From NCBI RefSeq assembly GCF_964355755.1, contig NC_092675.1, forward strand, positions 29,422,912 to 29,486,911: 64,000 nt of DNA, in the 5' to 3' direction. Positions 23-34,991 of this stretch are shown piece after piece. Every line of letters starts with the position of its first letter. Within the stretch, counting starts at the first letter, position 1. This DNA comes from Antedon mediterranea (lineage: Eukaryota; Animalia; Echinodermata). Made by a program: the position numbers and the translations under genes. The notes under the pieces were generated by a model. The model was given only the letters and a program-made list of their open reading frames with translations. It was not told where the DNA came from and did not search any database.

Positions 23-550
23 CTTCTGTTTCTGGTTTAAACAGTATAATATTGGAGTTGGCTGGGATACTGAACTCATTACCTTCTCTATCGTCAGCTA
101 AAAATCTTGACTGGTTCTTAACACTATGTATGTATAAAATCTATAGTAGTAGCAAATATATAAAAACAATATTATAAACTAATTTAAATGTCATTAAGAA
201 AAATAACAATGGTGAAATATAAATACTTGAACATCAGAAATAGGCAAAATTAAAGTGCAATTGAAAAAAACACCTTTTGGTTTGAGATTGCAACATCTTT
301 ATATAGATCAAAATAGACTATGAATGAAAATGGTTATATTGCTTGGAAGCAAAATAAAATAAAATAGTAAAAAAAAAAAATTTGTCTTCAAACTTACTTG
401 ATCTTTTTTGTATCCTTCATAAAAATTAGGACCTCGCTTACAACTTACAACTTTAACAATCTTGGGAAAAGATTCTGTTCTGGCCAAATCGCCTGCTGTA
501 AAACTTTGATAGGACCAGGAAGTCTCCGCAAGTTTATCAAACTCTGCCAT
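23..550 (-). CDS. GAREM-like CABIT-SAM adaptor paralog A (partial; exons 1-2, continues off left edge)
   Basis: Exon 1 398-550 (MAEFDKLAETSWSYQSFTAGDLARTESFPKIVKVV...DQ), exon 2 23-140 (ILYIHSVKNQSRFLADDREGNEFSIPANS...), GT-AG sites; homologous to exons 1-2 of paralogs B-I but the most divergent copy. Confidence 0.8.
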
Positions 551-2049
551 GTTTCTACTGTGATATGATATGCATGAGGAAACTAGTAGTAGTGCTTTAT
601 ATAATGTAGTTTATGCTTGTGTAGATAAATACAATCAATTCATTGCTATTTATAGTCACTCTGGAAACACATTTTGTTATTGGTATTTTTAGTGTTCATG
701 GATAATTTTGACCACACAAAATGTATAAGGACTGTGCATATTTTTTTTACATTTATCTTGTGATATAATTTCCCGAAGGATAGTAAAATCAAACCAATAC
801 TTGCTGTCAACTACTGAGACCATTCATTCATAGAAGCATTGATGATGAAAGTTTATATTGTCCTAAGGCATGACTCAACTTCAATAAAATTTGTTTGAAA
901 TTTTAAAATGTTTTGATCAAATCTTTTTGATTTCAAAAAGTCAAGATGAAGTAAAACGATAATACTGTATACATTGTTTAATGAGCTATTATTTTATTTT
1001 ATTGTAGTTAATATTATCATCATGCATTCTGCATTCATGTTACAGTTTATTTCAATACTAATAATCATCCTTAATAGTTATGAAAATGAATATTTGATAT
1101 CAATATTATTTATTTTTCTCGTGGTGCAAACACCAATTTTATTCACATTCATATTATTTCATGTCATTACATAAAATCATATTATTTAACACATTTTTGT
1201 TAATTCTAAATGTCGTTAAAATTCATCAGTAACATTTTTACATTTATGAATTCCGTATTACCTCCTTTTTTCATTAATTTTCTTATATTTTTCTATACAC
1301 TTGACAATGAGCACCATTGTCATCTATCTCGTTTTAAAATATTTCACACATAAGGAATTTGTGAGTTTTTCATTTGTTTGTTTTCATTTTACAACCCGGA
1401 TCAATATTTGTTATTTTATCATCCTTCAAAAACAGTTACAGAAGTAATGTATTATTTTTCGAAAGCTACAAGTATACAATCAAATGAACAAATACAAAAA
1501 AAGCAATGGTATTATGGAAAGTAAGTCAACACGACGTCCAACGCACCATTAAATCTGGATTGGATGTATTTTGCAAATTTTTGGTGTTTCTATTTTGTCT
1601 ATTTTGTAAGTTTTGTATAAGACTTAATATGGTAATTATAAAAAGTACAAAATGATAGAACACAGCTTAAAACAGTTTTTATGAAAAGAAAAAAAATTCA
1701 AACATCTATAAAAATACAACTATATTACAAAACAACTTTAAAAATACAATTACAATGTTAAATTAATAACTCCTTTAAATCCTTGTTATTCTTGTATGAG
1801 TATGTTTCTTATTTATTGCTTAAATGCTTTTTTTGTTTTCATTATATTTGTTTATTGTATGTAAATCAAATGAAAACCAACCAACCAAATTTCAGTTGTA
1901 CCTACAGTAGTTGTAAACATGACAATAATATTTTATAATAAAATTCTCTATAGCGCCCTCTATTTTTGTATATTTAAATTTTGGCACAGTAGTAAATTGT
2001 TACAAAGACTACATGAACACAAAAACAGCTAAAATGGTAATCATAATTT

Positions 2050-5000
2050 TTAACAATTAGGTAACCATTTTTCCTTGATAAACATTTCTAATTTGAGTAT
2101 TTCTAACTCTTTTAAATTAAGTTCTGTCTTCATTATGTTCTGGTCAAGATTCATAAGCAAGTTTCCATCAATCCCAATTTCCTGAAAATCTTGCACATGT
2201 TTGTCTAACTTTAGAAGTTTTAGGCAGTCTTGGACCTGATTACATGTCATGTCAGAGAGATTGTCTGGAAGATCCTCATTAGTTCTGATTCTGTGTTCTT
2301 CTTGAAGCATGATTTCTTTTGCTACAGTGGCTTTTGATTCCTTGTTCCTTGGAGGAGGTTGATGAGACTGACATTGCTTAGTTCTTTGAACATTGCCATT
2401 AACATAAAATGGATCAGGTTTGTTAATTTTCTCAAGATATAGAAATTTATTTGTTGATGTCACGTTCCTTGGAGAAAGCTGAGGAGACTGGCATTGCTTT
2501 GTCTGTTTAACATTTACATTAACATATGGATCATATTTCTTACTTTCCTCAACATATAAACATTTCGATTTCTCAATTTTTAAAAGTAACATTGGAGACT
2601 TAGGTGTTATTTCAACGTTTATACGATATGTCATATCATCATCATGTTTCTTACTTTTTTCATGTACTTTTGTTGTCTTATTTCTTGGAGGTAGCTTTGG
2701 AGAATCATTTGGCTTTTTATGACAATGTACAATTTTAGACATGTATATGTATTCTTCTTCTTTCTTTTCTTGTATGTCTTTAGGTTTGTTTACATGTTCT
2801 GTTTCATCAGATTGAACGGTGTTTTCTTCAGAGGGATGATTCTTAAAGTCATGTATAGATTCATAACTACCATCACTATCAATATCACTATCAATATTGA
2901 TTCCCTCTATTGGTTTAGTAAACAGCTCCTTCTGAAGATATATATTTTGTCCAATTTCAGTTGTTCTTTCTTCATAACTAGTAGAAGCTTCTATTTTGGG
3001 TTTACATTTTCTTTTGTATGATTTCTTTGATGAATTCATAGAGTAAGCATTTACCTCCTTAAATGAACTACTCCTAGCCAAATTCTGATCATCTACCTTT
3101 ATAGAGGTGTAGAATTTTGATCGGATACTTCCTTTATTCTTATCTTTTATTTTTTTAGAAGCGTTACTTTTCTCAGGTCTACATGAGCTATTTTCTTCAA
3201 ACTGGAGTAGTTTTGGCGGACCATTTATAATCATATCTGAAAATGGATTTTATGTGTAATTTCCTATATACTTAAAATAACAAGTTTTTTTTTCAACTAT
3301 TGTAGCTAACTATTACTGACCTAAAATAAACAAGGAAGTAAATATGTTAGACAGTTATGAATCAATACATAAATGATATGAAAGATCTCAACCAACTATT
3401 ACATTTCATGCAAGTTAAAGAAACAAGATTTTTAAAACTTTAAAGATATATTGTTGACCAAAAAACTTGTTTTTTTTTTTCAATTTTGTTGTTGAATATG
3501 CCATTTTAATGTCACATAATAATGGCACTTTGACCAAAAACTGGATCGAAAAAACTTGAAAAAAATTTAATTTTAAACAAAAAATACTTAAATTAAGTTT
3601 TTTTTTTTGTCTTTTTATGAGTGAAATCATTATTATTATTTTTTTTGAGGACAATACATCTTTAAATACACATTAATACATTTACCATAATATATAGACT
3701 TTAGAAAATAAGAAAGTAATTTACCAGGGTTTCCTTGATAACTATTAAATGTACTTTCATTGATGACACCGTGAACAACATCTTGGACATGTTCCTCAAA
3801 TAAAGTTAAACGATCGTCGATACCATCTCCTATCATAAGTGGAACTTGCAGACTTAAGTTACTGCACTCAGTTGGAATACACTCAATTAACTTTTCAGAA
3901 ACACCAGCTAAATTAGAAACATTTTTATCATTTCTATTTTAATGTTGATATAACTTAATTTAGTTTAAATCTAAAGTTATTAATTAGTACAACTTTTGCT
4001 TGAATCACCCTTCCTTTGATTCTAACAAAACAAGTAACAAATGTTTATAAGTTGAATTGGGAGCTTATTTTCATTGTTCTATTTAAAAAGGCAGAAGTGA
4101 CTTCAATAAAAAATGAAATATTCTCTCCATTCAATGAATACAAACATTCATATTACGGTACACACAATAACACATTTTAGATTGGTTTTCCAATGTACAT
4201 CATTGACAAAGAAAATGTATAAAACCTAAGTGTTAAGTAGAAATATAAAGTAGAAGATAATGTTACCTTCTGAAATACATGTTCCTATTATATATTTCAT
4301 CAAGCCCTTTTGTTTGATTGTCAGAACAACCTTGTCGTTCAGTAAATTCGGCAATTTTACGCATTGGAGCGAATGCAACTTTACTTGAAGTGGAAGTTCC
4401 AGATCTTCATGTAAAAACACAACTGAATCTATTTTCAAAATTTAGTGTTATTACTTTAAATAGATAGTTTAAATCAAAGAGTACAGTTTACAAGCATGTG
4501 AAATCAAACAAAAGTGCATATATCCAGGAGAAAAGCAGCCCTGTGTACATCCCCAAGGAAAAGCAGCCAGGACATTAATGATAATGGGAAAAGCAGCCGG
4601 GGTACATCTCCAGGAAAAAATCAACCTAAGGACAAGCATCCCAAGAACAAGCAACCAGGGGACATCTTCAGGAAAATCAGCCAGGGGACATCCCCGGCAA
4701 AAGCAGCCAGGGGACATCCCCGGCAAAAGCAACTCTGGGTAATTGTTTTCGGCCTTCATTGATTTTTCAAGATTACAAAAAAGGGTTTCTTATTAAATAT
4801 GATATTTAATTAGAAATCAACAAAAGTACCTTCTTGCATTTCTACAGTTATTAATCTAATTTCCGAGTTGATAGGGATACTGAACTCGTTGCCGCCTTCA
4901 TCATAAGCCAAAAATCTTAGCTGCTCTTTAATGCTATGTAAATATAATACCTATAGTAGTAAAAATGAATACATTTGTTTTAATATATAACAAATTTCAA

Positions 5001-5277
5001 ATAAATATTTTGATCACCAGCTATGATGATAAGTAAACTATCTTATTATTTTTGACCAGGATTAGTATTTAGTACAATTAAAAAAAGAAATAATGTTTGT
5101 AATTATTGTGTTTAATACCTGATCCGAACAGTAATCCTCGTAGAATCTATCCCCCAATATACTGCTTGATATTTTGACAACAATTGGAAAAGATTTCTCC
5201 TTCTTAGCCAACTCACTTGGTGTATAGTACTTGCTTGACCAGATAACATTTGGAAGCTCCTTGCTTATAATCTCCAT
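2050..5277 (-). CDS. GAREM-like CABIT + Tyr/Pro-rich linker + SAM adaptor, paralog B
   Basis: Exons 5119-5277, 4830-4950, 4267-~4428, 3725-3907, 2050-3236, GT-AG with consistent phases (0,1,1,1). C-terminus LPDNLSDMTCNQVQDCLKLLKLDKHVQDFQEIGIDGNLL...KWLP resembles the GAREM SAM (DLSGLS..EV...L...IDGNLL...GWRP). Linker has PKLPPRN, PYVNV, FYVNG. Confidence 0.88.
4500..4750. repeat. Short GC-richer tandem-repeat insert in intron 2 of paralog B
   Basis: Repeated unit like AAAAGCAGCCAGGGGACATCCCCGG; absent from the equivalent intron of the other paralogs. Confidence 0.6.
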
Positions 5278-6286
5278 TTGGTTGTTATATTTCTATGACC
5301 ACATTTTATGTTCTTAAAATAGGTCACAAGCGTGCAGAGTAAAACTCTTAGAGTTCAACAAAACATCTCTCCCATATAATTCCATGACTAGCTGATGTCA
5401 TAAAAAAAGGTAAATGATAATGTAGGCCATTTCCTAGATATTGCTTTGCAAACCCAATTATAATAATAGCATATGTGTATCTAAATTAACACGGAACTAC
5501 TATATGCAACCTTTATCAGATATTTCAAAGTACTGTAGACACAGTTTAAATAAGCAAACTGTTTATTTTTTTTAAATTACGAGAAATACTGTAGTGTCAA
5601 ATAATTAAATAATTGTACTTCCTTATCAACATTTCGTGTTAATAATAATTTTTATTGACATACACCATTTACATCTGTGGCATCCAATCTATGAAAGATG
5701 CACCAAAACATCAAGATATTAAACAACCAATTTACAATAATGTTCAGAAACTGTAACAATAACAAATAGTCCAAAGAATCTATTTCCTCAAAGGTACAAC
5801 CCACACATCTAACCTTCAAAAATCGGTTTTTAACAGTGTATTATACCATGGTTGAAATTGGTTAACAATAACTTAAATATTAACAGTAACTTAAATTAGC
5901 AATACCAGTACAACATCAATCTGTTTGTTTATTTGGTTTCCCCACACTTAATGCAAACATTGAATACAGATTAATAATGATTTTAAATGAAAATGAGTGT
6001 GGATGGAGATCAAAAAAAGCTATATTGAAACATATTAATCTAAATTGAAATTTATTTCACTTGAATATTGGTATTTCATATTAATGTATTAATTATTATT
6101 AAATATTGTTTAAAAAACATTCAAGAGATAAAAATGTACAGTAATTTGTTTGTAATATGCTATTGTAATCAATGCTATAAGGAAATGGCACTTGGAAGTC
6201 ATCTGGGGATGTTATGACACGTAACAAGTTACTTAATGTAAAAAGGAAACTAATAAGCTTCACATCGTCTTCCTATTCAGGCTTAT

Positions 6287-9200
6287 TTAAACACGAGGTA
6301 ACCATTTATTCTGGATAAACATTTCTAATTTAAGTATTTCAAAATCTGTGAAATGAAGTTCTGACCTCATTATGTTGTGGTCAAGAGACATAAGCAATGT
6401 TCCATCAATTCTATCTTTCTGGAAAACTTTGATATGTTTGTCCAACATTAGTAATTTTAAGCATTCTTGAACCTGCTGGCATGTCATTTCAGAAAGATTT
6501 TCTGGAACATCCTCAATACATCTGATTCTGTGTTCATCTTGAGGTGCCTTCCTTGCAAGAAGTTTTGGATTAATGTCTTGCTTTGAACTTTTGATAGTTT
6601 TATCAAATTCTTGGTATTTAATCCTATCATAATCATCATATCTGTAACAACTGGCTCCACTGTCATAGTTTATTTCTGTAGTGGCATCCTTTTCAAGGTC
6701 AACAACCTCTAATGAATCGTCTTCTTTCCAAAAGGTATTTGCAATAGACTCTTTCTGTTGGTCAATTACCTCTAAATACTCATTCTCTTTCTCCACTGTT
6801 GACTCTTTCTGTTGGTCAATTACCTCCAAATACTCATTCTCTTTCTCCAATGTTGACTCTTTCTGTTGGTCAATTACCTCTAAATATTCATTCTGTTTCT
6901 CCACTGTTGACTCAGTCTGTTGATCAATTACCTCTAAATACTCATTCTCTTTCTCCACTGTTGACTCCTGTTGGTCAATTATCTCTAGATAGTCATTGTC
7001 TTCCACTGTGGACTTCTGTTGGTCAATTATCTCGAGATAGTCATGGTCTTCTTCCACTGTGGACTTCTGTTGGTCAATTATCTCAAGATAGTCATGGTCT
7101 TCTTCCACTGTGGACTTCTGTTGGTCAATTATCTCGAGATAGTCATGGTCTTCTTCCACTTTGGACTTCTGTGGGTCAATTGTCTCTAGATAGTCATTTT
7201 CTTCTTCCACTGTGGACTTTTGTTGGTCAATTGTCTCTAGATAGTCATCGTCTTTCTCTACCATTTTTGCAGTGAACTCTTTCTGTTGGTGAAGTAAATA
7301 ATTCTTTCCCATTCTTACAATGGACTTTAAATAACCGTCTTCATCATCCGACTCTTTCTCCATTATTTCAGAATAAACATCATCATCCTCAGTGGATTCC
7401 TTCTGTGGGTCAATTATCTCTGTATAATCATCTTTGTCTGTGACTTTTCCAGTGAATTTCTGCATGTAAGTTATGTTTTCATAAACGTCATCACTAGTAT
7501 CACTTAGGGGTTCATCTGTAATGTTTTCATAATTGTCATTGTTTCGATGAAGATTTCCTTTATCAACATTCAATAGCTTTTTATCAATTTTTGTAGATTC
7601 ATTTATTTCATCTACTACAGAGTAGTAGTCATCTTGACCACTACTAACGTTGGAGGTATCCTCTGTTTGATGGATGGCCTTTTTCATGTTCATTATTCGA
7701 AACCCCTTTTTCTTTGCTTTTCCTACATCTTCAATTTTAATTAGGTTTGGCAGAGCATTCGCAATAATATCTGAAAGTTAAAATAAATTGTTCTTCATTT
7801 GCATGTAAATGTGAGAAAATAAAACTCAATTTCCAAATCTTTATATAATTAACTTTATTTACCTGAGTTTCCTTGGTAACTGCTAAAAGTTTTCTCATCG
7901 ATGACACTGTGAACATATTGTTCAAATAAAATCAACCGATCATCGGTACCATCTCCTATCATAAGTGCAACCTTTAGACGTAAGCTACTGCACTTGGTTG
8001 GAATACACTCAATAAAGTTTTCAACAGCATCTGATAAAAAGAAACATAATATAATATTTTTCAAAAACTTGGAGACATTCTTTAAAGATTTTTTATTATA
8101 TTTTAACATCCTAAAAATTATATGAATTTGAAGTATATGGCAAGCATGCAAAAAAGTAAAAGAGGTCTTTATTTATAGCCTTGGTACAGAATTTAAACTA
8201 CTGTACTACAAATATATAGTCAATGACATCAATGATAGATTTTAGAAATTACAAATTGTTATTACCTTCTGAGATACATGTTCCCATTAAGTATTTCATC
8301 AAGCCCTTTTGTTTGATTGTCAAAACAGTGTTTTTTTTCTTCACCAGTATTTCTGGTAGTCTTTCGATTGGCCAGCAATTATTTTTCGCTTTAACTTTAA
8401 GAGGAAGTACCATGTCTATATGTAGATATACTGTTTCTATTTTTAGAATAATAAATCAAATTAATATGTAAAACATGTTTGATTTTGGTATCAGGTCTTA
8501 AAACTTGTAATGCAATACAGTGATATATCCACCTAGTACAAGTTGAGAACTTATAATCAATAAAATATGGTTTTTGTTGAACATCAACTAACCTTGTTTG
8601 TCTGCAGTCACAAATGCAATATCAGAGTTGATAGGGATACTGAACTCATTGCCTTCTTCATCGTAAGCCAAAAATCTCAGCTGCTCTTTGATGCTATGTA
8701 TATATAACACCTGTAGTAACAATGACGTTTTACATATCTTTTTATTGCCAGAATAATAATATAATTACATAATTAAGTTTTGACTAAAATAAAATGTATT
8801 TATGAGTCAATCCTATTATAGAATTTTTGCAGAATTTTTTTTTAAAAATCAAAATCAAATAACTTTATTTTGTCCTCAATAGGAAAATATTTTGAGTGTA
8901 TTTCATAGTAATACATACAAATATTTAAAACATTTGGTTAAAAGTATTAAAATATGTAAAAACACTATATATAAGCACTTGCTTTAAAATATAAAAAACA
9001 TCATAATAGTATACGGGTAACAAGGGAAGTCACAAATATACATCATTTTATAGTCTGATGGATTACGGTACAAATGAATTAAAATATCTTTTCGTCTGAC
9101 TATTGCACAATCTCAGCTAATCTAACAATGCTATAAATTTAGTATTTTTAGATATCAAATTATGAACGTTAATTACAAAATGTATCCCTTACTTGATCTG

Positions 9201-9351
9201 TACTATAGTCCTCATAGAATCTATCACCAAGTGTACTGTCAGCTATTTTGACAACAATGGGAAAAGATTTCTTCTTCTTAGCCAACTCACTTGGTGTATA
9301 CCACTTTCGTGACCAGGTAACATTTGTAAGTTTGTCACTTATCATCTCCAT
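6287..9351 (-). CDS. GAREM-like CABIT-SAM adaptor, paralog C (10x YLE[I/V/T] repeat linker)
   Basis: Exons 9193-9351, 8593-8710, 8266-8436, 7863-8030, 6287-7770; last exon checked in frame from its acceptor; 17-18 aa repeats (e.g. QKSTVEEDHDYLEIIDQ); C-terminal SAM. Confidence 0.88.
6740..7260 (-). repeat. Coding minisatellite (51-54 bp unit, ~10 copies) encoding D/E-YLE-I/V/T motifs
   Basis: Visible tandem units such as CTTCTGTTGGTCAATTATCTCGAGATAGTCATGGTCTTCTTCCACTGTGGA. Confidence 0.9.
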
Positions 9352-10507: not shown

Positions 10508-13480
10508 TTATGAAACAAGGGGTAACCATTTTTTCTTAATAAACATTTCTAATTTTAACGCTTCAAACTCTGTCAATTTAAGTTTTGTCTTCATTGTGTT
10601 CCGGTCAAGATCCAGAAGTAAGTCTCCATTAATCCCAATTTTCTGAAAGTCATCAATGTGTTTGTCCAACTTTAGTAGTTTTAAGCAGTCTTGTACCTGA
10701 TTACATGACATATCAGAGAGATTATCTGGAAGATCCTCTTTAACTCTGATCCTGTGTTCTTCTGGTGTATTCCTTGGTTGAAGCATTGGAAGAATATTCT
10801 GGATGTCAGTTAGTTTTAAATATCCATCATAATCTATGTAAGTGTCCTTTGAAATGTCATTTATATCTTCATATCCATCACTTTCACTGTTTGTGTCTGC
10901 AGTCATTTTCCTTCTGCTTTTTTGTATGTCAGTTGGCTCTAAATATCCATCATCTATGCAAGTGTCATTATCATCTTCTTCATGTGTATTTCCTTCTCTT
11001 GGATCTTTTTGGATGTCAATGTCTTCATATTCACTATCGTCGCCTCCAACATTTGTAGTTGTACCAGTGAGGTCTTTCTGAATGTAAATCTTGTTCTCAT
11101 AATCTTCATCATTATAACTGTCACCCTCTTCTTCCTCATGTTGGATTACAAGCACATCTTCATAATCATCATCTTCTCTGTAATTGTCATTATTGCCTTC
11201 TTCATTTGCAGTCATTTTCCTTTTGCCTTTGTGGATGTCAGTTACCTCTAAATATCCATCATCATCTATGCAAGTGTCCTTGTTACCTTCTTCATGGGTA
11301 TTACTTTCTCTTGGATCTTTTTGGATGTCAATGTCTTCATATTCACTATCATCACCTACATCTGTAATTGTACCAGTGAGGTCTTTCTGAATGTAAATCT
11401 TATTCTCATAATCTTCATCATTATAACTGTCACCCTCTTCTTCCTCATGTTGGACTACAAGCACATCTTCATAATCATCATCCTCACCCTTGCCCTCATA
11501 TACCTCTTCATAATCATCAGTATCACCAGTTGGGTCAATGACCTCCTCATAATCTGAATTGCTATCATCATTTCCGTCTTCATCTGCCGTAAGGTTTTTT
11601 TTAAGGTAGATTTCCTTTTCATAACTATGGCCACTGTCACATAGGTTTTGACTTTTTTCACCAATGATATTAGAAGCTTTGTCTATATTACGTGTGTATT
11701 TCTTGACATTTTTTCTTTTCCCCTTTGGACGACCATCTATCTTTTCAACTTTACTACAAGCATCATCCTGTGGTTGGCTGGTGCATTTTTTGGGATTCGT
11801 TTGGATGTTCTTTTTCTTTTTATACTTAATAAATCGAAACTTTTTTTTCTTGCCTTTATTTTTTGTATCAGGTTTATTGACATGTGGTTCATTTGAGCTT
11901 TCTTCTATCTCAATTGGCTTAGTAACAATAGTATCTGAAAATTAATTAAATTGATAGATTAGAAAATGATTTGACTTATATCGTCTTGGGTTTGGAGTGT
12001 CTTAAATGAGAAACTAACTATATTAAATTTAGTTCAAATAACAAAACTCATTTGTTGTCATAACTTTTATATGGATGATTAAAAATTTAATTTACCAGGG
12101 TTTCCTTGATAACTGTTAAATGTACTTTCATCGATGACACTGTGAACAACATCTTGGACATGTTCCTCAAATAAAGTTAAACGATCATCGGTACCATCTC
12201 CTATCATAAGTGGAACTTGTAGACTTAAGTTACTGCACTCAGTTGGAATATACTCAATAGTCTTTTTTATACCAGCATCTGATTTAAAAAAACTTAGTTG
12301 TTTTCACAATGTTTAAAGACATTTGATACTGATAGAGTAGTTACAAAGTAATTAAAATATGAGAAACAAAGAGAACTGAAATTGATCTTATGAAATGGAA
12401 ATTGAAATATCCAGGACACATCCTCAGAGACAATGTTTCTAAGCTCCCCATACAGTTTTGGAAGAACTAATAATAATATTGAGTTTGAGATCAAGGGATG
12501 GTGAGAGGTAATGGAGTGATGATGTCAAAATCTGGTGAAATATAAATGCTTCAGCGAAAAATAGAGGTAAATGGAGAATATGGTCTACAATCTTTGATAC
12601 AAAGATGGCATGTCATAATATATAACTATTACCATATTTGATTCCGGCACCATTTTGTGAAAACTATAATATAAATTGGTTTCTTTTATTTTTAAGTCAC
12701 CTAAATATTGTGGGCATCATTCACTGCTGACTTGTTTGAATTGAACTAGAAACTGATTTACCTTCTGAAATGCATGTTCCCATTAAGTATTTCATCAAGT
12801 CTTTTTGTTTGATTGTAAGATTTTTTTCCTCTAACACTAAATCAGGCAATCTGGTATGTTGGTTGCTGTTAACTTTCACTTTAAGTGGAAGTTCCAAATC
12901 TTCATGTAGCAAGACACTTGACTCTGTTTTCAAAATACAAATACAAGTATCGGTTGTATTGATATTTTGGTATCAAATATTACATATGATAGTATAGTAA
13001 TTACTAATAGAAAGTTGACCAACCTTCTTGAATATCTGCAGTTTCCAAGCCAATATCAGAGTTGATTGGGATACTGAACTCATTGCCTTCTTCATCATAA
13101 GCAAAAAATCTCAACTGCTCTTTGACGCTATGTAAATATAATACCTGTAATAATAATGAAAAATGTGATAAATTTATACAATATAAAAGGTAATTATATA
13201 AAGTTTACCATGGGATTACAAATAAAAGGACTGTAACAACTACCACTTAAACTTTTATTTTGAAGTCCTGCATTACAGTAAATAATGAAGTATAATGTTG
13301 TTCATTGAAATTATGTCTTACTTGGCCTGTACTATAGTCCTCATTCAATCCATTGCCTTGTGCGCCCTCTGCGATTTTAACAATTATGGGAAAAGATTTT
13401 CTCTTCTCAGCCAACTCACTTGGTGTATAGTACTTTCTTGACCATTTAACAGTTGTAAGTTCGTCACTTATCATCTCCAT
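10508..13480 (-). CDS. GAREM-like CABIT-SAM adaptor, paralog D
   Basis: Exons 13322-13480, 13024-13144, 12762-12923, 12096-12278, 10508-11934; last exon manually translated open from acceptor; contains ~309-bp internal duplication; DYEEV/DYEDV/EYEDI/DYENK motifs; SAM. Confidence 0.88.
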
Positions 13481-24187: not shown

Positions 24188-27100
24188 TTAAACTTGTGGC
24201 AACCATTTATTCTTCATAAACAATTCTAATTTGACAATTTCAAACTTTGTCAAATTAAGTTCTGTTTTCATTATGTGCTCGTCAAGACTCATAAGTAATT
24301 CTCCGTCAATCCCAACTTCCTGAAAATCTTTAACATGTTTGTCCAACTTTAGAAGTTTTAAGCAGTCTTGGACCTGATTACATGTCATGTCAGAGAGATT
24401 ATCTGGAAGATCCTCATTAGTTCTGATTCTGTGTTCTTCTGGTGTATTTCTTGGTGGAAGCTTTGGAAGAATTTGATGCATTAAACTAGTTGGTTTATCA
24501 ATCTTATCATCATGGACATCTTTGTCTCCATTGGGTTGTTCCAGAACTTCATTACCTCTGTCATGTGCAGTTTCTTCACTGGGGATGTCAATTATTTCTT
24601 CATAATAATCATTATAACTGCCTTCACCAACCTCTTCATAATCTGCATCATCAATGGTTCTTTCTTTATTTTTTGTTCTTGTGTGTTTTTTTTGGTCCTG
24701 CCGGTATATTTTCATTTCATAACTATGATTATTGTCATATTTTAGGCATTGGCTGCTCTCACCAATGATATTACAAGATTTGTCTATATTAGCTGAGCAT
24801 TTCTTGACATGTCTTTTCCCTTTTCTTTTTGATCGAAAACTTGTTTTCTTTACTTTTGCTCGATTTGTTACCATTGTCGAAGCTTTATTGTCATCATGTG
24901 GTTCATTTGTGCTATCTTCAATCTTCAGTAAGTTTTGCTGAGCATTGATAATAATATCTGAAGATTATTTAAAAACATATCTTTAATTTGTGATTATTAC
25001 TGTAAACTAAAAACATATATTTCTTGTATTTATACAGTGCACATATTCATTCATGAAATTTAATTTTATCAAAATAATATCTACTTATATTAGATATATT
25101 GATGTATAATATTTTTACCAGGGTTTCCATGATAACTGTTAAATGTACTTTCTTCGATGACACTGTGAACAACATCTTGAACATGTTCCTCAAATAAAGT
25201 TAAACAACCATCTCCTATCATAAGTGGAACTTGTAGACTTAAGCTACTGCACTCAGTTGGAATACACTCAATAAATTGTTCAGCATCTGTAATAAAAACA
25301 AGATTCAAAATCTTGAATTAAATTTTGTTGAACTTTTATGTTATTTGTGCGAAACTGACTCATCAAAGCATTAGTTGTTTTAGCAATTTTGGTATTATCT
25401 GGCAAAGTAATGGACCAGTGACTAATTAAACTAGAAATTTGGTACCTTCTGAAATGCATGTTCCTATTAAGTATTTCATCAAGCCTTTTTGTTTGATCTC
25501 AAGACTTGTTTTCGGTGACATTAAATCAGGTAATCTGGCATGTTGGTTGCTGTTAACTTTCACTCTAAGTGGAAGTTTCAAATCTTCATGTAGCAAAACA
25601 CTTGACTCTGTTTTCAAAATAAAAAAAGTTGTAAAATCGGTTGTATAACTGTATCTTATTGTTAGTATAAGTTTTGCAATTTTTTTGTGTTCATGGATGG
25701 ATTGATTATTATATTTCATATAAATTTATTTGAATTTTTTTGTATTTGAACTAACCTTCTTGTATGTCTCGATTTACAAAGTTAATTTCAGAGTTGATTG
25801 GGATACTGAACTCATTTCCTTTTTTATCGTAGGCCAAAAATCTCAACTGCTCTTTGACACTGTGTAAATACAATACCTACAGTAACCAGGAAAACTAGAA
25901 TTTAATTTGTCACTTTGACGAATTATAGGTGATCATTTTTATCAATTTAATGAAATTAACATTTTTTAAACATGCACGTACGTTAACATACCATCGTAAA
26001 AAGTTGATGTACGCCATCCTATGACATGATGCATATACACTTATAGCGCTGAGTTGTGCCTATTATGTGTCATATACAATATGTACAGTATATACTGTAT
26101 ATCTATATACAGTGTAGCATAGGTAAAATTATGGGACCCACATCATGTTCTAATTTTTTGGTATAATGGAATTATCAAAATAAATTCGAAGATGACAATT
26201 TCGAAAGATGTGTGCTCTTTGAAATTTGTATAACTTCGACTAAAGAAATTTAAAAACTACGTTTTAACTTCAACTGGCCATATGATAACATCACATCATC
26301 CGATAGGCTTAATTTTTATATGAATTCATATCTACATTTCATCAGCTTTCATAATAAGTTATAATCTTGAAGGTCACCTTTAATTCTGAAGAGCTATAAG
26401 ATATTCAAATATATGGTGTAGCTGAAATTACACGACCTAGTTTATTCAAGTTTTCACGCGTGATGACGTCATCAAAATAAAAATGTTGACAACTCATGAG
26501 AAAGATAATTAATTGAGCAAGCACATACTAAAATTTGTGCGAAAATTGGGTTCAAATAACGGAGATTCCCTCTATTGAATGTGATAACCCACACAAAAAG
26601 ATAAAAATTACTATTTTTTTAATGGAAGTGGCCATTTGATGACGTCATACCATTTTGTACGTCTAATGTGTATATACATTTATATCTACAACTTATTGGC
26701 TTCCATATTAAGTTAAAAAAATTAGGGGTCATCTTCCATTCTGAAGAGTTATATTCATTTTAAAAAGGCCCTACTTTTTACAATTTTTAGCACTTTTGTA
26801 CAATTAATGTGCGCATTTTGTCATTTTTAACGTGCTCGTATAGCGTTATTTTAAGTCGGAACTGACTCAAATTTGGTGAATGTACTAAGGATGGTGAGTA
26901 GAATGAGATTTGTAAAAAAAATTCACATTTTTTACGCTTTTTAAGTATCGCGCGCGCAAATTTTTTTTTTGCGCAGTAATTTTTTGAAACACGCAAATGG
27001 CCTCTAAATTCATGCTCTAAATTGATCAAAACTTAATTTTGAGCATTTTAAATTTTTAACGCGCGATTTCACGTGCATGACCCTACGTGCGCGTGAGTTT

Positions 27101-27721
27101 TTATTTGCTAATATTTTTACCCTTGACCTGAAGTTTACGTGTAGTGAATTTCATTAATATGTGATAATGAATTATGGAGATATGATTGATAATGTGATTT
27201 CGCAAAATGGCGTATAAATGACGTCACGGACGAGTGATGACGCTGGAAAGCTTATTAGGATTAAGTTATATTATTTGAAAGATATTCTGAAATTTTGGTA
27301 ATCATTGACATTAAACTTTTTGAGATAATTGTTACACAAAATAGTGTACAGAAACAATAAAAAGAAAAAAAATAATAAAGATTTTATACAATAACAATAG
27401 GTGATCATTTTATTCTAAATGATCACCTAAATATTTATGTTTAGCTTAAAAATAACTATATAGCTTCCTTAAGTCTTCGCATTATGTATTAACTTCAGCA
27501 AAATATTGAAGTTGTAATCAGTAAAATGACAAAATAGTTACTGTATTTAAAGAAAGTCTTACTTGGCCTCTACTATAGTCTTCATAGAATCTGTCACTCA
27601 GTACACTGTTGGCGATTTTTACAACAATCGGAAAAGATTTTTTCTTCTCAGCTAACTCGCTTGGTATATAGCACTTTCTTGACCATTTAACAGTTCTTAG
27701 CTCTTTACTTATAATCTCCAT
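24188..27721 (-). CDS. GAREM-like CABIT-SAM adaptor, paralog H (short linker)
   Basis: Exons 27563-27721, 25756-25876, 25446-25607, 25119-25286, 24188-24957; intron 1 enlarged by a 1.5-kb transposon; PKLPPRN, DYEEV, YYEEI; SAM. Confidence 0.86.
25895..27431 (-). mobile_element. Non-autonomous Helentron-associated element (HINE/DINE-1-like) in intron 1 of paralog H
   Basis: One end has hairpin TAGGTGATCATTT-TATTCT-AAATGATCACCTA (27398-27429) next to a simple A/T-rich tract; the other has the subTIR TAGGTGATCATTTT (25926) plus a short stem-loop AATTTGTCA-CTT-TGACGAATT (25904-25924). This subTIR + IR + terminal stem-loop layout is typical of HINEs. Confidence 0.72.
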
Positions 27722-28340: not shown

Positions 28341-28532
28341 ATTTTGTAAAATTCTGAAAGTAATTGCCAACGTTGAGTTGCATTTAGATATCAAGTTGAA
28401 TCAGACACTGAGTCATGTTGTAGCACCTGAACTGGCAAATTTAGGTTTGGACCAAGAGCCAGCTCCTAAGTGTAAAAGGACTTTATAAAAAGCATAAAAG
28501 GAACACAAAATAATTTTTTTATTTGATACTAA

Positions 28533-31500
28533 CGCCCGTATTCTTAAACCGGACTTTAGTCGTAGTTCGAGCTAAAACTTTAAAAATGACGTCATTTTAA
28601 TTCATAAACCGAACTTCAACTAAATCACCGACTAATTCAGGCCAACCTTGACTAAATTGAGATGGATTTTGATTGATTGTTTTAGTCCTGGAGGGGGCAG
28701 ACTAAATGGTTTTTTAACGATGTTTATGAAAAACGTAACAGTCATTGAGTTGTTATATTGGCCAGATATTGAAGAATGAAATATCTATTTTTATATTAGC
28801 TTAATTACATATACATTGGTATAAGTTATAATAATGAAAATCATATTTATTTACAACCGTATACAAATTACATTTTCTTCGCAAGTCCGACTTGAACTAC
28901 GTCACGCCATAGCGACTGGCAGAGGCGGAAATTCACCACGCACGCGATGGAATGTTTAGGGGACCTAGCGCTTTCTTGTCACATTATGAAGTGCGTGGTT
29001 CGTCGCGATCATACTTTGTTGGTGGCCTAGAAAATATAAAAGTTACCGTACCGCCATGGTTCCTAATTATATTTTGAAGGTTTTGTTTGTTGTTAATCAA
29101 AAGTACTTCACTGTTAAATTAATACTGATCTTGTTCTAATAATTAATGATTAACATTATTAATATAGTCCTGATGCGTAAAAAGTTTTGTAAGAAAATGG
29201 AAAGTAATATCAATGCGCAAAATTTCGTCTGCTCCTCAAATACTCTTTTGTCATTGGCCAATTTATAGCCTTTGTTACCCAGACGTGTGCAACTCCCTTT
29301 GCAAAAAAACCGTATACGAACGTATACGATTTACATACGTTTCGTATATGTTTCGTATAGGAAGTCCACTTCGTATACGAAACGTATACGTCAATTCGGA
29401 AGTTCCTGCCCGCATAATAAACACATACGAACCGTATACGATCATTTATAAACAATTTCCTAATTATACGCTCCGTATACGATCCGTATATGATCCGTAT
29501 ACGACGACGCGTGTATACAAACTGCATCGTATTACCAAGCGAAAAGGGACTGTCCCTCTTTTTACAAGACGACGATAGCATACGTTTACGATCGCAGGAG
29601 CATCTTGACTTCAATAATTAATGTACAATTTGGGTTTTTTTTCAGTCGGTATATGTACATTAAATTCCCTATGATGATTTAGTTCATAGTTTTCGCGAAT
29701 GAAAATTTGGTGCTGTATTTTACTAGACGTTGTTTTTCTAGCAAGCATAAAAACCCACCCAGGCTGTTCTGTCTTGTTTATCCCCTCTGCTATTTCTTTA
29801 CCTTTTGTATGTTCCATTAATAAGTGAATCACACAAAATGTGCTGTTATTAATTTGAAAGTGCTTTAAATAATATTAATGTACTTGGAAATAAATAAGTA
29901 AATATTAAATTGGGCCCGCAGTATATTAAATTTAAAACGAGTAAGTAAAATCCATAAATTACGATTTAATAAAAATGTAGAATACATGTGGCTCCCTATT
30001 ATATATATGGAATGATCCAAATAAATTCGCCCAAAACGTGCCTGTGTTATGTGCGCTGCATGCATGCATCACATGGATGGATCAGATTTCATTCATTTTC
30101 AATCATCATTGATTTTTTGGCTACGGGTTTTGACTCACCATAAAAAAAAAAAAATGGGATGTAGGCCTAGTTAAAGTAGGCCCAGGTATATAGTAAATTC
30201 GATGACTTCTAGCTAGCTAGGCTATAGGCATATTGTAATTGTATATATCGAATATGCAGTATATAGCTACTGCAGCAGCGCTAGTAAACTAAGAGTTAAC
30301 TAGGCCTGGGGAAAATACGCGAAGGAAAAGAGTCTGTGGTACACTCATTGTGAAAATAAGCTAGCTAGCTTTCCCCCATATATTAGATTTGGTTATATTG
30401 TATTATTTTAATAACCTACTCTAGCTAGTAGTATATCAACAACGGTGAAATGGAAATACGATGCATTATGGATATCATCGTTGCAGAGTTAGGGGGTGCC
30501 AACAAAACATTCAACAGCCAGAAATACAAAAAAGAAGCTCCGACGTTTTTATTTAGAGCATTTTACTATTTTAGGCATACAGAACTAATTGCTGTAAATT
30601 TCCTAGAGTTGTCACTGATAAATACAATAACCTACATATAACTTAAAAAATCCAAATGATAAATTGTACGCGAACGCAGTAAAACCAACCAGTTAAATGT
30701 TTGTTAAATAATTATTTTACATCTCCCTCGTAAAATGGTACCCTACGCCCCCATTTTTATGCCTCCATCATTGATAAGCCCCCTCTGTACACACGCCTGC
30801 CGGCTATTTGTTTATCATTTTAATGAATGTAAGTACGAGTCTAACTCCAAATAAAGATATAGAACACATTTTAAGAATTCAAAGTGTTGATCTTTTTTAA
30901 GAATCTGATATATACCATGAATCATCTTTTTACATAATATACAGCATAAGCATGTACAATCTAATTTAATTGTCACACAATTGAATTAACAAAGGACAAG
31001 GATTTCAAATAAACTGTTACAAATAAACAATTATTAATGAAATAGTTGGGGTATTGTTGGGTCCATGGGAAATCAACAATGTTTAGTAGACTTATTTAAT
31101 TTGTTATTTAAAGTTGAGGGTAGTTATTTTTTAAACAATTATTGGAATACAGTACCATGAAAATAAAGAAAGATATGTTTTATGATTTATTTATCACCAA
31201 GCAGAAATAATGAAAGCAATTCAATCTCTGTTCGCTACTGGGAATAAATTGAGATTCGATATAATTGTATTTACTATCACCACTAATTAATTGTGTTTTT
31301 TTTTATTCATATATAATTCATAATTCATACAATTTATATATATTCAAAATCCGAATGTATTCATCGTTAAATAATAATTATTATAATGACCTTACTTCTG
31401 TTTTGGGTCATGGTTTTCCTCTTCGGCATTATTTGCCGAATTATTGTTACTCCATCTCCATTGCTACGACACACGTCGCGGAATAATATCGCTTAACATA

Positions 31501-32408
31501 ACGATGTAATTTGACCACCCAAAGCTCGCACGTGGCGTGACGAATTGAGAACGACGAACCCGATGATTCACCCGATGATATGCATGATTGGCCACCAGGG
31601 AGCCGAGTCGACCACGAGTTGGAACTGTAGGCAACCGAGCGACGCTCGGTCGTCGTCGGCGGCTGCACTTACTGACCTCTGTCATTTTTTATAAAGGAAA
31701 ACTGCAAACAACATCGTCGATTTGTGAAAATGGCCCCTTGTTTTTTCTAGGCCTACCTAATAGTATACCTGTTTAGCGTACTTTATTTACTTGCGAAAAA
31801 CGTTGCTTGAATTTTATCGGTAGCCTAGGCTATCTAATAAATATAGAAATAAATATGATCTTATGTTCTAGCTCCTACTACTTATTAATACTACTAGAGG
31901 CCTATCTAATGGCTGGTGCTCGCTAGAGGCCTAGCCTAGCCCTAGCTAGCTAGGCCAGAGCCTACGTACGTATTTGTTGTAATGACAATTTAAATGTTTT
32001 ATTTAGCTCTATTCTACTCATTACTGCTATTATAATTTATAAAATGGCCTAGTTTGTTCGTATATGATTCGTATACGTCCCGTATACGATATTCTTATCA
32101 TGAATAAACAACGTATACGTTACGTATGCTAAACGTATACGACGCCAACTCTTTGTGGAGCAACAGAGTGGAAATAATGTAAACAGTGAAATCGTATACG
32201 ATCCGTATACGTCGTATACGTTTTCAGCGTATACGGATCGTATACGGCTTTTTTGCAAAGGGCTCGACTAAAAGCTTGACTTCATTAAGTCGAACTGCAA
32301 ACTTCGACTACTTCGTTTATGAATCGAATTTGAAGTAATAGCTCGAACTACGACTTTTTCAAGTCGAACTTTGAACTACGACTAAAGTCCGGTTGAAGAA
32401 TGCGGGCG
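28533..32408. mobile_element. Non-autonomous PIF/Harbinger-like DNA transposon (outer element)
   Basis: TIRs CGCCCGTATTCTTAAACCGGACTTTAGTCGTAGTTC / GAACTACGACTAAAGTCCGGTTGAAGAATGCGGGCG, flanked by TAA on both sides (3-bp TSD). Confidence 0.8.
29295..32262. mobile_element. EnSpm/CACTA-like element nested in the Harbinger-like element
   Basis: TIRs CCCTTTGCAAAAAAACCGTATACGA / TCGTATACGGCTTTTTTGCAAAGGG, 2-bp TSD (CT), dense subterminal CGTATACG repeats at both ends; no transposase ORF recognised. Confidence 0.75.
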
Positions 32409-32736
32409 TAAGTAATGAATGGTCAAGCGATAAAAGTTTAAAGTTAAATGTTGTGTTTTATTTTTTATTGTTTTAAAATAATCATTGAATCGGGTTGAAC
32501 AATAGTATTTACACTAATAAGTTGGACACTTTTTCAATTGTCATTAAAAATATCTTGACTTTCGTCTATTTCCTTCTGGAGATTATTGATGTAATTTTAC
32601 TTTTTGAGTTAATGTTGTTTACCTAAAAGCTAATTATGCAATAAATTGCTATTACTGAGTTGTTATTTTCATAAATTGATTAAAAGTTATTAATAACTGT
32701 TTTGTTAATGAAGAATTATCAAAATTAATGATTTAT

Positions 32737-34991
32737 TTATTCAACTTGAGGTAACCATTTTTTGTTAATTAACATTTCTAATTTGAGTATTTCTAACTCT
32801 TTCAAATTAAGTTCTGTCTTCATGATGTTCTGGTCAAGACTCATAAGTAGGTTTCCGTCAATTCCAATTTCCTGAAAATCTTGCACATGTTTGTCCAACT
32901 TCATAAGTTTTAAGCAGTCTTGGACCTGATTACATGTCATGTCAGAGAGATTATCTGGAAGATCCTGCTTTCCTTTGATTCTGTGTTCTCCTTGAGGTGT
33001 ATTTACTTGTATTACTTTAGATTTGGTTGTAGATTTTGTATTTGTTGATGTCATATTTCTTGGTGGAAGCTTTGGACGAATGTCTTGGTGTGTAGTTTGA
33101 ACACTATCAAGACCTAGTGATGTATTGCCTATACCTTCCTTATTTTGAGATGAGCTTGATGTAGTTTGGTCATATTTACTAGGATTTACCGTGCAATAAC
33201 CATCTAGCAATTTAATTTTGTTATTATTTGTAACTTCATAATAATTTTCATTATCGCTGTTATTGGTTCTGGTGTCCTCCTGAGTGTGAATTCTTCTTTC
33301 ATAAGAATTGTCATCGTCACATCTATCTCTATTTGTCAGTTTTAAATCATCAGTGTAATTTTCATCATCTTCATCTTGAAGTCTTTCATACTGGTTCCCC
33401 TGGAGGTATATGCTATTTTCATAATTAGCATCAATGCTTTCATTTTGAACCTCAAGTAGGCATTTATGATGATATCTGAAAGTTTTAAAATAAATATTTA
33501 TTGCCAACACATGAAACAACAGTACAATCTGACAATGAACATAATAAATAAATATTCAATTAGTTCTGTTTTAGTAAAACAATAAATTTTTGTTTCCATT
33601 TGAAACATGATTAATTTACCTGGGTTGCCTTGATAACTGTTAAATGTACTTTCATCGATGACACGTTGAACAACATTTTGGACATGTTTCTCAAATAAGG
33701 TTAAACGATCATCCATACCATCTCCTATGTTCAGTGCAACACTTAAACCTAAGTTACTGCTTTCAGCTGGGATACACTCGATGGCCTTTACAAAGACATC
33801 TATAAACCAAAATAGTTGAACAAATTTTGTAAAACTAGTTCATATACAGTATTATTCAATTTATATTTGAAATAAAACATTGTTATTTTACCTTCTGACA
33901 TACATACAGCCATTAGGTATTTCATCAAGCCCTTTTGTTTTATTGTCAAAACTGTATTGTTCTTTCTCCGCAACAAATCAGGTAATCTTTCACATTGATC
34001 AGAATCAAATTTGAATTTTATTTCAACTGGAAGCTGTAGGTGTTCATGTAGAATCAAGTCTGTTTTTCAAAATAAAATTGATTTTTATTTATTTTTATTA
34101 TTAAGTCCTTGCAATTTTTTCTGTTTGTTTACCACCTCTTACTAATACATAGATTGGTATTTCCAATACAAATTTAATTGTTTCAATCTTTATTTTATTT
34201 ATTTTATTTCCAAACCCAACCAACAGCAAAATAAATTTGCCAATAACAGGAGGGAGGGAGCTCAATAATTTGTGCCATACATATACATACACTATTTATA
34301 ATGCACCTTATCAACACATTTCAAGGAGCATTACAGATAACTAAAACTATAAAATGTTCTGAAAAAAGTGAGATTTTAACTGAATATGATATTATATGCC
34401 TCACAAAAATGCTGTGGAAGTATCTTTCACATATGGGGGCCATCAACATGAAAGGATCCCTGTGGCACTGATTTGTCAAATGAAGGAGGAGTTGGGTATA
34501 TATAAAGAGAGGATCGGAGCAAGTACTTTTAGTGTGTATAAAGTGCTGACAGCCTAATGATAATTCTAACCTTCTTGAGTATCTGCAGTTTCCAAGCCAA
34601 TATCAGAGTTGATTGGGATACTGAACTCATTGCCTTCTTCATCGTAAGCCAAAAATCTCAACTGCTCTTTGATGCTATGTAAATATAACGCCTGTACAAA
34701 AAGAACAATTTATAATTGTTATTAGCTGTAGAGCTATATGCAGTTAGGTACTGGCCTATAGTAAATGCAATTAAAAAGTCAAGCGTCAGTTGATTGTTTT
34801 GATAGTATTCAGTGCAAACTATAATGTCTTACTTGTCCTGAACTGTAATCCTCGTAAAATCTGTCCCCAAGTTTACTGCTTGAGATTTTGACAATTATGG
34901 GAAAAGAGTTCTTCATCTTGGCCAAATCACTTGGTGTATACAACTTGCTTGACCAGGTAATGGTCTTAAATTCTTCAATTAATTTCTCCAT
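32737..34991 (-). CDS. GAREM-like CABIT-SAM adaptor, paralog I (apparent 1-nt frameshift at start of last exon)
   Basis: Exons 34833-34991, 34571-34691, 33892-34059, 33620-33799, 32737-33475. Phase-1 splice reads DIIINA like paralogs but is then out of frame with the NYENS...PKLPPRN...SAM ORF; one extra base near 33459 restores it. Confidence 0.75.

Follow-up and report, generated by a model that had tools for sequence, protein, structure and literature searches.

A tandem array of putative GAREM-type adaptor genes with tyrosine-rich, repeat-built linkers in the crinoid Antedon mediterranea

Nine Paralogs Lie in Tandem on the Minus Strand

The window, i.e., the whole stretch of 64,000 nucleotides analyzed here from contig NC_092675.1 of Antedon mediterranea, contains nine paralogous genes that run from position 34991 to 23, all on the minus strand; eight are complete and the ninth is cut by the window edge, in agreement with the nine same-strand paralogs of the preliminary description. 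All 31 introns in the models of the eight complete copies have GT-AG borders, and the five exons that had been assigned to each gene were found in most complete copies, copy E having four coding exons. An assembly artefact was ruled out, given that the copies are 63–85% identical in protein (pairwise comparison of the N-terminal domains) and that DNA-like runs cover 30 of 30 bins. The full architecture, consisting of an N-terminal domain (N-domain), a linker and a SAM domain, is encoded by six of the eight complete copies because copies A and C are frameshifted.

Copy A (32737..34991; exons 34991-34833, 34691-34571, 34059-33892, 33799-33620 and 33475-32737) carries a frameshift early in exon 5 with a stop at codon 254, leaving a product of 253 aa that comprises the N-domain only, with linker and SAM still present in another reading frame; the NCBI model P0005 adds a small upstream coding exon (35401-35363) and ends at the same C-terminal stop as ours. 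Copy B (24188..27721; exons 27721-27563, 25876-25756, 25607-25446, 25286-25119 and 24957-24188) is intact, encodes 459 aa identical to NCBI P0004, with PKLPPR and SAM, and has the shortest linker (155 aa, 7 Tyr). In copy C (20477..23319; exons 23319-23176, 23060-22940, 22836-22675, 22424-22242 and 22081-20477) a frameshift just ahead of the SAM leads to a stop at codon 570, where NCBI P0003 also stops, and to a product of 569 aa. This copy is a mosaic, its 5′ part and linker being D-like, its YVN/PPR repeat H-like and its SAM and 3′ flank B-like.

The next three copies are intact. Copy D (16832..19567; exons 19567-19424, 19229-19106, 19010-18849, 18705-18523 and 18357-16832) encodes 712 aa, with NCBI P0010 as a 5′-shortened model, and its linker of 407 aa and 28 Tyr contains PKLPPR and YEDV/YLEV repeats in 48- and 54-nt units. 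Copy E (14148..16292; coding exons 16292-16134, 16008-15705, 15463-15281 and 15067-14148; 521 aa) owes its count of four coding exons to the collapse of intron 2, whose in-frame remainder contributes 7 aa and has identical letters in contigs from two samples. Copy F (10508..13480; exons 13480-13322, 13144-13024, 12923-12762, 12278-12096 and 11934-10508) encodes 683 aa identical to NCBI P0002, and its linker (373 aa, 24 Tyr) harbors an internal duplication of 309 nt.

Copies G and H are intact as well. The linker of copy G (6287..9351; exons 9351-9193, 8710-8593, 8436-8266, 8030-7863 and 7770-6287; 699 aa) spans 393 aa with 24 Tyr, and a 51-nt unit repeated 9.8 times produces ten YLE[IVT] motifs. 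That of copy H (2050..5277; exons 5277-5119, 4950-4830, 4428-4267, 3907-3725 and 3236-2050; 603 aa) is less acidic, with 294 aa, 14 Tyr, two YVN motifs and PKLPPR. Copy I (23..550) is represented by exons 1 and 2 only (550-398 and 140-23) and is the most divergent, having 38–46 of 85 residues in common with the other copies; since its remainder lies past the left edge of the window, the array may comprise further copies.

Nested high-copy elements with terminal inverted repeats occupy 28527..32414 (inner element 29295-32262; no strand assigned) between copies A and B, outside the genes, and transposon-like and satellite DNA occurs within and beside the array. CaMKII and a BTB-domain gene are neighbors in the window.

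Spliced Contigs Point to Expression of at Least Two Copies

Of the 19 predicted introns between 2000 and 21999, three showed exact CT..AC joints in run X1, namely the last intron of copy E and introns 2 and 3 of copy F, and none did in runs X2–X4; run X1 is RNA by guess only and also covers introns and intergenic DNA, and in two of the three joints the short side measures just 28–30 letters. These spliced contigs support that copies E and F, at least, are expressed, which partly answers the expression check proposed at the outset. No joints were seen for copies D, G and H in runs X1–X4 (2000-21999), nor for copies A, B and C among the 15 listed of 84, and neither result is proof of silence. 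In a contig of run X1, copy C skips 20869-20992 and its reading continues to the SAM; copy C, frameshifted here, is thus intact in another individual.

The C-Terminal SAM Domain Is of GAREM Type

The C-terminal SAM of the preliminary description was recovered in all eight last exons, under the Pfam cut-off (E from 9e-4 to 0.04), and the SAM of the Anneissia homologs P0006 and P0009 scored above it. When a profile of the eight SAM sequences was compared with the PDB, 2dkz (human LOC64762) was the best of 23 matches with an E of 1.7e-6, the next reaching 2.2e-4, and the SAM of copy B alone matched 2dkz with an E of 2.9e-4. LOC64762 is, we assume, GAREM1; on this sequence similarity the SAM is assigned to the GAREM type.

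The N-Terminal Domain Is Likely Related to CABIT and Probably Headless

The N-domain had been described as a CABIT domain, and the proposed HMM check did not confirm it: Pfam CABIT (PF12736) had no match in any protein or exon scanned, with E up to 1–10, a profile search found no CABIT chain among the PDB sequences, and no direct alignment with the CABIT of THEMIS or GAREM resulted. The assignment gained support from the ESM Atlas, where CABIT clusters made up 24 of 30 hits of the feature search (score 0.92, 195 of 256 shared) and the structure search gave a TM of 0.77 over 200 aligned residues to a mollusc SAM/CABIT cluster, followed by 0.69 and 0.66 to CABIT clusters and then by 0.28. According to these model-based predictions, the N-domain likely belongs with CABIT proteins.

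A CABIT domain comprises about 260–280 aa, divided into a core of paired beta-barrels, to which both the N- and the C-terminal segments contribute, and an SH3-like head of 88–113 aa. In THEMIS, CABIT1 has its core at 1–89 and 178–260 with the head at 90–177, and CABIT2 has its core at 267–344 and 458–544 with the head at 345–457; the Cys motif of both starts about 145–150 residues in. The N-domain, at about 205–215 aa, falls 50–70 residues below either THEMIS domain. PMC9250082 gives the Cys motif as wXC-X7-26-wXLPw-X3-GXF, and its strict form occurred in none of 11 N-domain sequences. A relaxed version with Ala was present in all 11, starting at residue 61–66, and the LP motif that follows this Ala motif (IP) is only 25–34 residues away. 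The IP-LP junction is where intron 2 and the insertions of copy E and Anneissia P0006 sit.

Two AlphaFold models of the N-domain were weak (pLDDT 52.7 and 48.6, with the middle 60–70 residues below 50), and Foldseek found no match for either in the PDB at E 0.001. The top fold matches by VIA were ScaR, IdeR and FeoA (3e19), with Z of 7.0–7.4 and rmsd of 2.4–2.7 over about 70 aligned residues scattered over 28..185, a Z of 7.4 lying inside the stated background of the tool and the second model giving only 4.5. Folds of the ScaR/IdeR/FeoA type are those published for the CABIT core. Interdigitated double-Tudor (hybrid-Tudor) domains aligned end to end at a low Z of 3.0–3.5. THEMIS chains were not among the VIA matches listed, which does not weigh against the CABIT reading. 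Taking together the length, the missing Cys motif and the core-type fold matches, the N-domain is probably a headless CABIT, the loss of the head being deduced from lengths rather than from superposition.

It seems to us unlikely that the N-domain is a full CABIT in compact, divergent form, which retains the head, has Ala instead of Cys and belongs to ordinary GAREM-like proteins that Pfam misses. Residues 66–86 do fit the published motif apart from the Ala in place of Cys, the Ile that most copies have for Leu, and the loss of Gly, the ESM Atlas aligned 161–200 N-domain residues to CABIT-cluster models (target ranges not given), and the poorly defined middle of the AlphaFold models would leave room for such a domain. 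It would nevertheless place about 65 residues before the motif, compared with about 145–150 in both THEMIS domains, and the 50–70 residues by which the N-domain is short correspond to one barrel's worth under either mapping of the motif.

The Linkers Are Acidic, Tyrosine-Rich and Built From Repeats

Conserved ends around a variable middle, as first described, were borne out: the linkers of the seven Antedon copies measured range from 155 to 407 aa and from 7 to 28 Tyr. A Pro-rich character could not be upheld, a single PKLPPR being found in four of seven linkers and none in E, F, and G, so that three of seven lack PxxPxR, while Anneissia P0006 has three PxxPx[RK]; the linkers are acidic and Tyr-rich instead. 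Asp and Glu account for 27–30% of linkers C, D, F, and G, and in most copies a Lys/Arg-rich stretch follows the N-domain. Repeat units in the last exons have lengths divisible by three.

The pattern acid-Y-x-x-hydrophobic occurred 10 times in D, 7 in F, 13 in G and 13 in Anneissia P0007, against about one in shuffled sequences (p 0.0005 each), and three times in copy C (p 0.049), the significant enrichment being inflated by tandem copies of one unit; the other four of the nine linkers, those of B, E, H and Anneissia P0006, showed no significant enrichment. Such tracts could instead serve through their charge, in a nuclear, chaperone-like or ion-binding capacity, with the basic stretch as a nuclear signal. 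The Asp/Glu content and the Lys/Arg-rich stretch are compatible with this, as is the reported nuclear pool of THEMIS, yet the preference of Tyr for an acidic residue before and a hydrophobic one at +3 in five of nine linkers, and the amplification of other Tyr motifs (YLVP, YEYP) in Anneissia P0007, make it very improbable.

Folded Domains Are Conserved While Copies Exchange Segments

The dN/dS, determined per domain as had been proposed, is below one for both folded domains: 0.31 (0.24–0.40) for the N-domain and 0.43 (0.24–0.71) for the SAM as whole-domain values, and 0.22–0.45 across all 28 N-domain pairs. Both are therefore under purifying selection, which rules out fast evolution of the folded domains, contrary to the fast diversification claimed earlier. 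In AU tests, the N-domain and the SAM each reject the tree of the other (p 3e-5 and 0.003). The copies owe their diversity to repeats in the linker and to mosaic exchange with one another. Antedon and Anneissia copies separate in the tree (97/100), as expected for the lineage-specific duplication originally proposed, and the two frameshifted copies and mosaic trees conform to the birth-death dynamics suggested with it.

The frameshifts in two of eight complete copies, the splicing seen for E and F only, and the transposon-like and satellite DNA in and beside the array could also mean that the tandem locus is unstable and has generated most copies as neutral by-products, with one or two genes functional and the linker differences due to drift. 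We give this little credence, the least of the readings considered, given that six of eight frames were kept open at a mean dS of 0.35–0.52, that every one of the 28 N-domain pairs has a low dN/dS and that the last-exon repeats keep to multiples of three.

Homologs Were Found in Crinoids and Similar Architectures in Molluscs

Against 1.84 billion representatives, phmmer matched five proteins, all crinoid; in Anneissia the homologs were duplicated independently. Among metagenome contigs, 416 pattern matches yielded no confirmed homolog, and none of the searches brought up a GAREM, THEMIS or Serrano sequence with which a tree could be built. In the ESM Atlas, the top three matches of full-length copy B were clusters of mollusc proteins that have both CABIT and SAM (score 0.93). 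As regards the architecture, the suggestion that the system had not been described needs correction: the combination of CABIT, proline motif and SAM is already reported in PMC9250082, and the ESM Atlas has invertebrate clusters of 86–150 members.

Discussion

The explanation that we favor, with moderate confidence, is that the copies encode GAREM-type cytoplasmic scaffolds, formed by a headless CABIT core, an acidic Tyr-rich docking linker and a SAM, and diversified by exchange. Once a receptor is activated, linker Tyr that follow an acidic residue would be phosphorylated by a Src/Syk-type kinase, so that pYEDV, pYEEV, pYLEV, pYENK and pYVN sites could be bound by SH2 proteins, YxN sites by Grb2-like adaptors and PKLPPR by SH3 domains, while the CABIT core, like THEMIS, would associate with an SHP-type phosphatase. 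Unequal crossing-over and conversion would reshuffle N-domain, linker and SAM among neighbors, and internal repeats would alter how many docking sites a linker has and of which type; as a consequence, the copies are proposed to vary in the strength of the signal and in their choice of partners, with the folded ends conserved. The co-assembly through the SAM that had been proposed at the outset would be a further conjecture.

A narrower form of this explanation is that the array constitutes an immune-specific adaptor repertoire of coelomocytes, acting downstream of variable pathogen receptors and turned over under pathogen pressure. This is a tentative possibility, which would agree with the birth-and-death pattern, the mosaic copies, the difference in copy C between individuals and the role of THEMIS in vertebrate antigen-receptor signaling. 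Purifying selection on both domains argues against it, and so do the visible neighbors, CaMKII and the BTB-domain gene, which are non-immune, and GAREM1 itself, whose expression is broad.

More speculative still, and in our opinion rather doubtful, is an undescribed invertebrate subfamily of headless CABIT-SAM proteins, separately expanded into recombining arrays in crinoids and molluscs, that would supply innate immune cells with a repertoire of copy-specific, repeat-encoded phosphotyrosine codes that vary between individuals. If this were true, the CABIT core alone would be the working module and the head with its namesake cysteine dispensable. How CABIT acts on SHP phosphatases is still debated, in a literature centered on mammalian THEMIS and GAREM, and a natural core-only protein would allow a direct test of which CABIT subdomain works. 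The array would also be a compact case of intracellular diversification at the level of adaptors, invertebrate immune variation being usually sought in receptors. Should the head be present and the genes be non-immune, the array would be an ordinary case of a GAREM-like gene, unannotated so far, that expanded within one lineage.

Comparison With Known Adaptor Systems

GAREM1 and GAREM2 (FAM59A/B) combine a single CABIT, a proline-rich sequence and a SAM. GAREM-type adaptors bind Grb2 and an SHP phosphatase and are tyrosine-phosphorylated upon receptor activation. The Antedon proteins share with them the domain order, the SAM nearest to 2dkz and, in some copies, the SH3-binding-type proline motif and YxN motifs; they differ in the N-domain of about 205–215 aa that has no Cys motif and probably no head, in the acidic linker, which is made of repeats and has as many as 28 Tyr, and in the presence of at least nine tandem copies as opposed to two vertebrate genes.

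THEMIS and THEMIS2 are tandem CABIT adaptors that bind Grb2 and SHP-1. The Antedon N-domain resembles THEMIS in its CABIT-core-type fold matches and in a conserved Tyr-bearing loop within its first 50 residues, this Tyr being presumably the equivalent of THEMIS Y34. In contrast to the two full modules of THEMIS, the Antedon protein has one short module plus a SAM, and its PKLPPR is distant from the domain, whereas the THEMIS PxRPxK comes right after CABIT2.

The unnamed invertebrate CABIT-SAM clusters of the ESM Atlas, mostly from Mollusca (86–150 members), are similar to the Antedon proteins in make-up, length and structure (CABIT and SAM, 430–570 aa, TM 0.77 over 200 residues), with no sequence-level match by phmmer. 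Pfam detects CABIT in only 19–55% of the cluster members, which would fit a shortened domain.

The p130Cas substrate domain, the acidic region of SLP-76/BLNK and LAT are multisite phosphotyrosine scaffolds. The disordered acidic tract and the repeated kinase sites recruiting SH2 proteins, as proposed for Antedon, would be common to all of them, but the folded domains are unrelated, and in Antedon the number and type of sites vary among tandem paralogs.

An array of minus-strand paralogs

The preliminary description had claimed nine paralogs on one strand, and a six-frame motif scan indeed recovered the shared motif set nine times on the minus strand, from 34991 to 23. Exon building yielded complete models for eight of them, lettered A to H from the right; the ninth, copy I, is cut by the window edge after exon 2, and the array may continue leftward past this edge. 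The A–H introns are GT-AG in 31 of 31 cases. The five exons proposed per copy were found, as coding exons, in seven models but not in E, which has four because its intron 2 is reduced to an in-frame remnant, identical letter by letter in contigs from two samples. Six models keep an open frame throughout (459–712 aa), and the premature stops of A (codon 254) and C (codon 570) result from frameshifts, each in the last exon. A tblastn search of 35–64 kb returned no additional copy, only a small upstream exon of A. In copy H, a short, very high-copy repeat lies in the last intron (3480–3525), and the second intron holds a tandem repeat with 26-nt units (4469–4789).

The exon 2–3 stretch of E is 100% identical to an Antedon mediterranea NCBI protein, and NCBI models were matched for six of the eight complete copies (A–F), all named uncharacterized protein; the proteins returned included no model for G or H. 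P0002 and P0004 are the same as our F and B models, and the truncations of C and A are also present in P0003 and P0005, respectively. Searching 1.84 billion representatives, phmmer matched five proteins; Antedon accounts for three and Anneissia japonica for two. The Anneissia record LOC117101259 has 1340 aa and no SAM match; a second Anneissia gene (662 aa, SAM present) has two alternative first exons. The Anneissia proteins P0006 and P0009 are identical outside the first exon, a hint that this species, too, has a tandem duplicate; the name under which the database lists them, eisosome protein SEG2-like, seems to be a mislabel caused by low complexity. In the Anneissia protein P0007, a tail of 1089 aa contains 50 Tyr, and no SAM was matched.

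Head to head with the array lies a CaMKII gene (38400–55600, plus strand), with kinase exons at about 39.3, 40.7 and 41.1 kb and the association domain at about 55 kb. Its variable region contains two similar exon-like blocks (52214–52318, 105 nt; 52669–52785, 117 nt; plus strand) with a common acceptor/donor context and an LAAQ end in both, possibly duplicated, mutually exclusive exons. A CAT/GAT-rich microsatellite within the CaMKII span (48002–48230), which reads on the plus strand as a His/Asp repeat, is probably non-coding. A 91-bp satellite (35765–38115; 25.8 copies, 97% matches) separates array and CaMKII, and a plus-strand BTB/POZ exon (63344–63649; Pfam E 2e-25) probably belongs to the beginning of a kelch-like gene. 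An element with 60-nt terminal inverted repeats (28527–32414) encloses a second one (29295–32262) with 25-nt inverted repeats and CGTATACG-rich subterminal repeats; the nested elements have high depth in both runs compared, and no long ORF was found in them.

The N-domain as a probable CABIT core

Pfam CABIT matched none of the proteins and exons scanned. In the ESM Atlas, whose feature and structure searches count as one source, CABIT clusters made up 24 of 30 feature matches of the N-domain (0.92; 195/256 shared), its model reached TM 0.77, 0.69 and 0.66 to three CABIT or CABIT-SAM clusters (next ≤0.28), and full-length B matched three mollusc clusters with CABIT and SAM (105, 86 and 150 members). 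In two weak AlphaFold models (pLDDT 52.7 and 48.6), the N- and C-terminal segments together form one beta-barrel and the middle is poorly modelled; neither model gave significant Foldseek matches. The top VIA ranks were ScaR, IdeR and FeoA (3e19), at Z 7.0–7.4 (4.1–4.5 with the second model), and interdigitated double-Tudor domains aligned over 96–107 residues at Z 3.0–3.5; as these values lie within background, they are compatible with a CABIT core and do not prove it. ScaR, IdeR and FeoA are named as weak structural neighbours of the THEMIS CABIT core in bioRxiv 2024.10.01.616165.

In THEMIS, CABIT1 consists of a core (1–89 and 178–260) and a head (90–177; bioRxiv 2026.06.24.734275), CABIT2 of a core (267–344 and 458–544) and a head (345–457; bioRxiv 2024.10.01.616165), and the Cys motif lies within the head, at 150–174 and 411–434 (PMC3931654). 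The crinoid N-domain measures only about 205–215 aa, terminal helices included. The strict Cys motif of PMC9250082 occurs in 0 of 11 N-domain sequences; a relaxed motif with Ala occurs in all 11, starting at residue 61–66, and the next LP motif follows after only 25–34 residues, a gap that holds intron 2, a 7-residue insertion in E and a short one in P0006. From this length and these motif positions, about one barrel of sequence would be absent, and we consider it quite probable that the N-domain lacks the Cys-bearing SH3-like CABIT head.

SAM domain and tyrosine-rich linkers

All eight last exons score slightly below the Pfam SAM cut-off, which Anneissia P0006 and P0009 pass. Among PDB sequences the SAM matched 2dkz best (hypothetical protein LOC64762; E 1.7e-6), followed by TIR-1 (2.2e-4), then neurabin and SARM1. 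We take LOC64762 to be human GAREM1, for which a literature search gave no confirmation.

The variability described for the middle region was borne out in the seven copies measured (A, out of frame, was excluded), whose linkers span 155–407 aa with 7–28 Tyr. The last exons contain tandem repeats that vary from copy to copy, with units of 12 to 309 nt, every one a multiple of three; at 6–8% Tyr, chance alone would put a Tyr in most units. YLE[IVT] occurs ten times in G, YEDV/YEDI/YLEV motifs in D and F, YVN in H and C, and PKLPPR once each in B, C, D and H. Against 2000 shuffles, Tyr after at least two acidic residues with a hydrophobic residue at +3 was enriched in the D, F, G and P0007 linkers (p 0.0005), marginally in C (0.049) and not in B, E, H and P0006, counts being inflated by tandem copies. 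The motif classes resemble Src/Syk substrates and SH2 ligands.

Exchange between copies and transcription

Per-domain dN/dS averaged 0.31 pairwise for the N-domain (bootstrap 0.24–0.40) and 0.43 for the SAM (0.24–0.71). In the unrooted N-domain tree one branch (97/100) splits nine Antedon from three Anneissia sequences, a pattern consistent with each lineage having duplicated or homogenised its copies separately. For the N-domain, the tree joins C to D and B to E; for the SAM, it joins B to C and D to F; each data set rejects the other's tree (AU p 3e-5 and 0.003). Along copy C the nearest relative changes from D to H to B, the 3′ flank counted with B, as expected of a hybrid from unequal crossing-over.

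In run X1, whose sample differs from that of X2–X5, one contig omits 124 nt of copy C lying between a pair of short direct repeats; the omitted stretch lacks GT-AG ends, and once joined the sequence is open through the SAM. Because of this form, copy C is likely polymorphic, or else X1 carries another paralog.

X1 was taken as RNA by guess, since none of the runs is recorded as RNA. Its contigs, which also span intronic and intergenic DNA, contain exact joints at F intron 2, F intron 3 and the last intron of E (CT..AC on the plus strand), that is 3 of the 19 predicted introns of the stretch compared, two of them with 28–30 letters on the short side; X2–X4 have none at these 19. These joints support the view that at least E and F, or very close relatives of them, are transcribed; they do not address the tissue.

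Possible function and relation to known CABIT proteins

The array proteins are most likely non-enzymatic scaffolds. By analogy with THEMIS (PMC13381594), a kinase would phosphorylate the linker tyrosines, which would recruit SH2 proteins; the partner of PKLPPR would be an SH3 adaptor, and that of the CABIT core an SHP-type phosphatase. An immune role is possible, with indirect support from two transcripts labelled GAREM-like that may or may not be of this subfamily: an oyster one belongs to an immune-enriched module (PMC9892467), and a mussel one was up 24 h into exposure to noise (PMC12488463).

The literature covered, with subscription journals, one supplement and the 2009 original outside its scope, contained neither a crinoid array nor a CABIT without a head. 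The 2009 paper may already have discussed invertebrate expansions; according to a review, it pointed out hundreds of uncharacterised metazoan members, and a single CABIT with a proline motif and a SAM is an architecture already described (PMC9250082). Compared with it, the probably headless N-domain and the Tyr linkers, built from repeats and recombining, are new.
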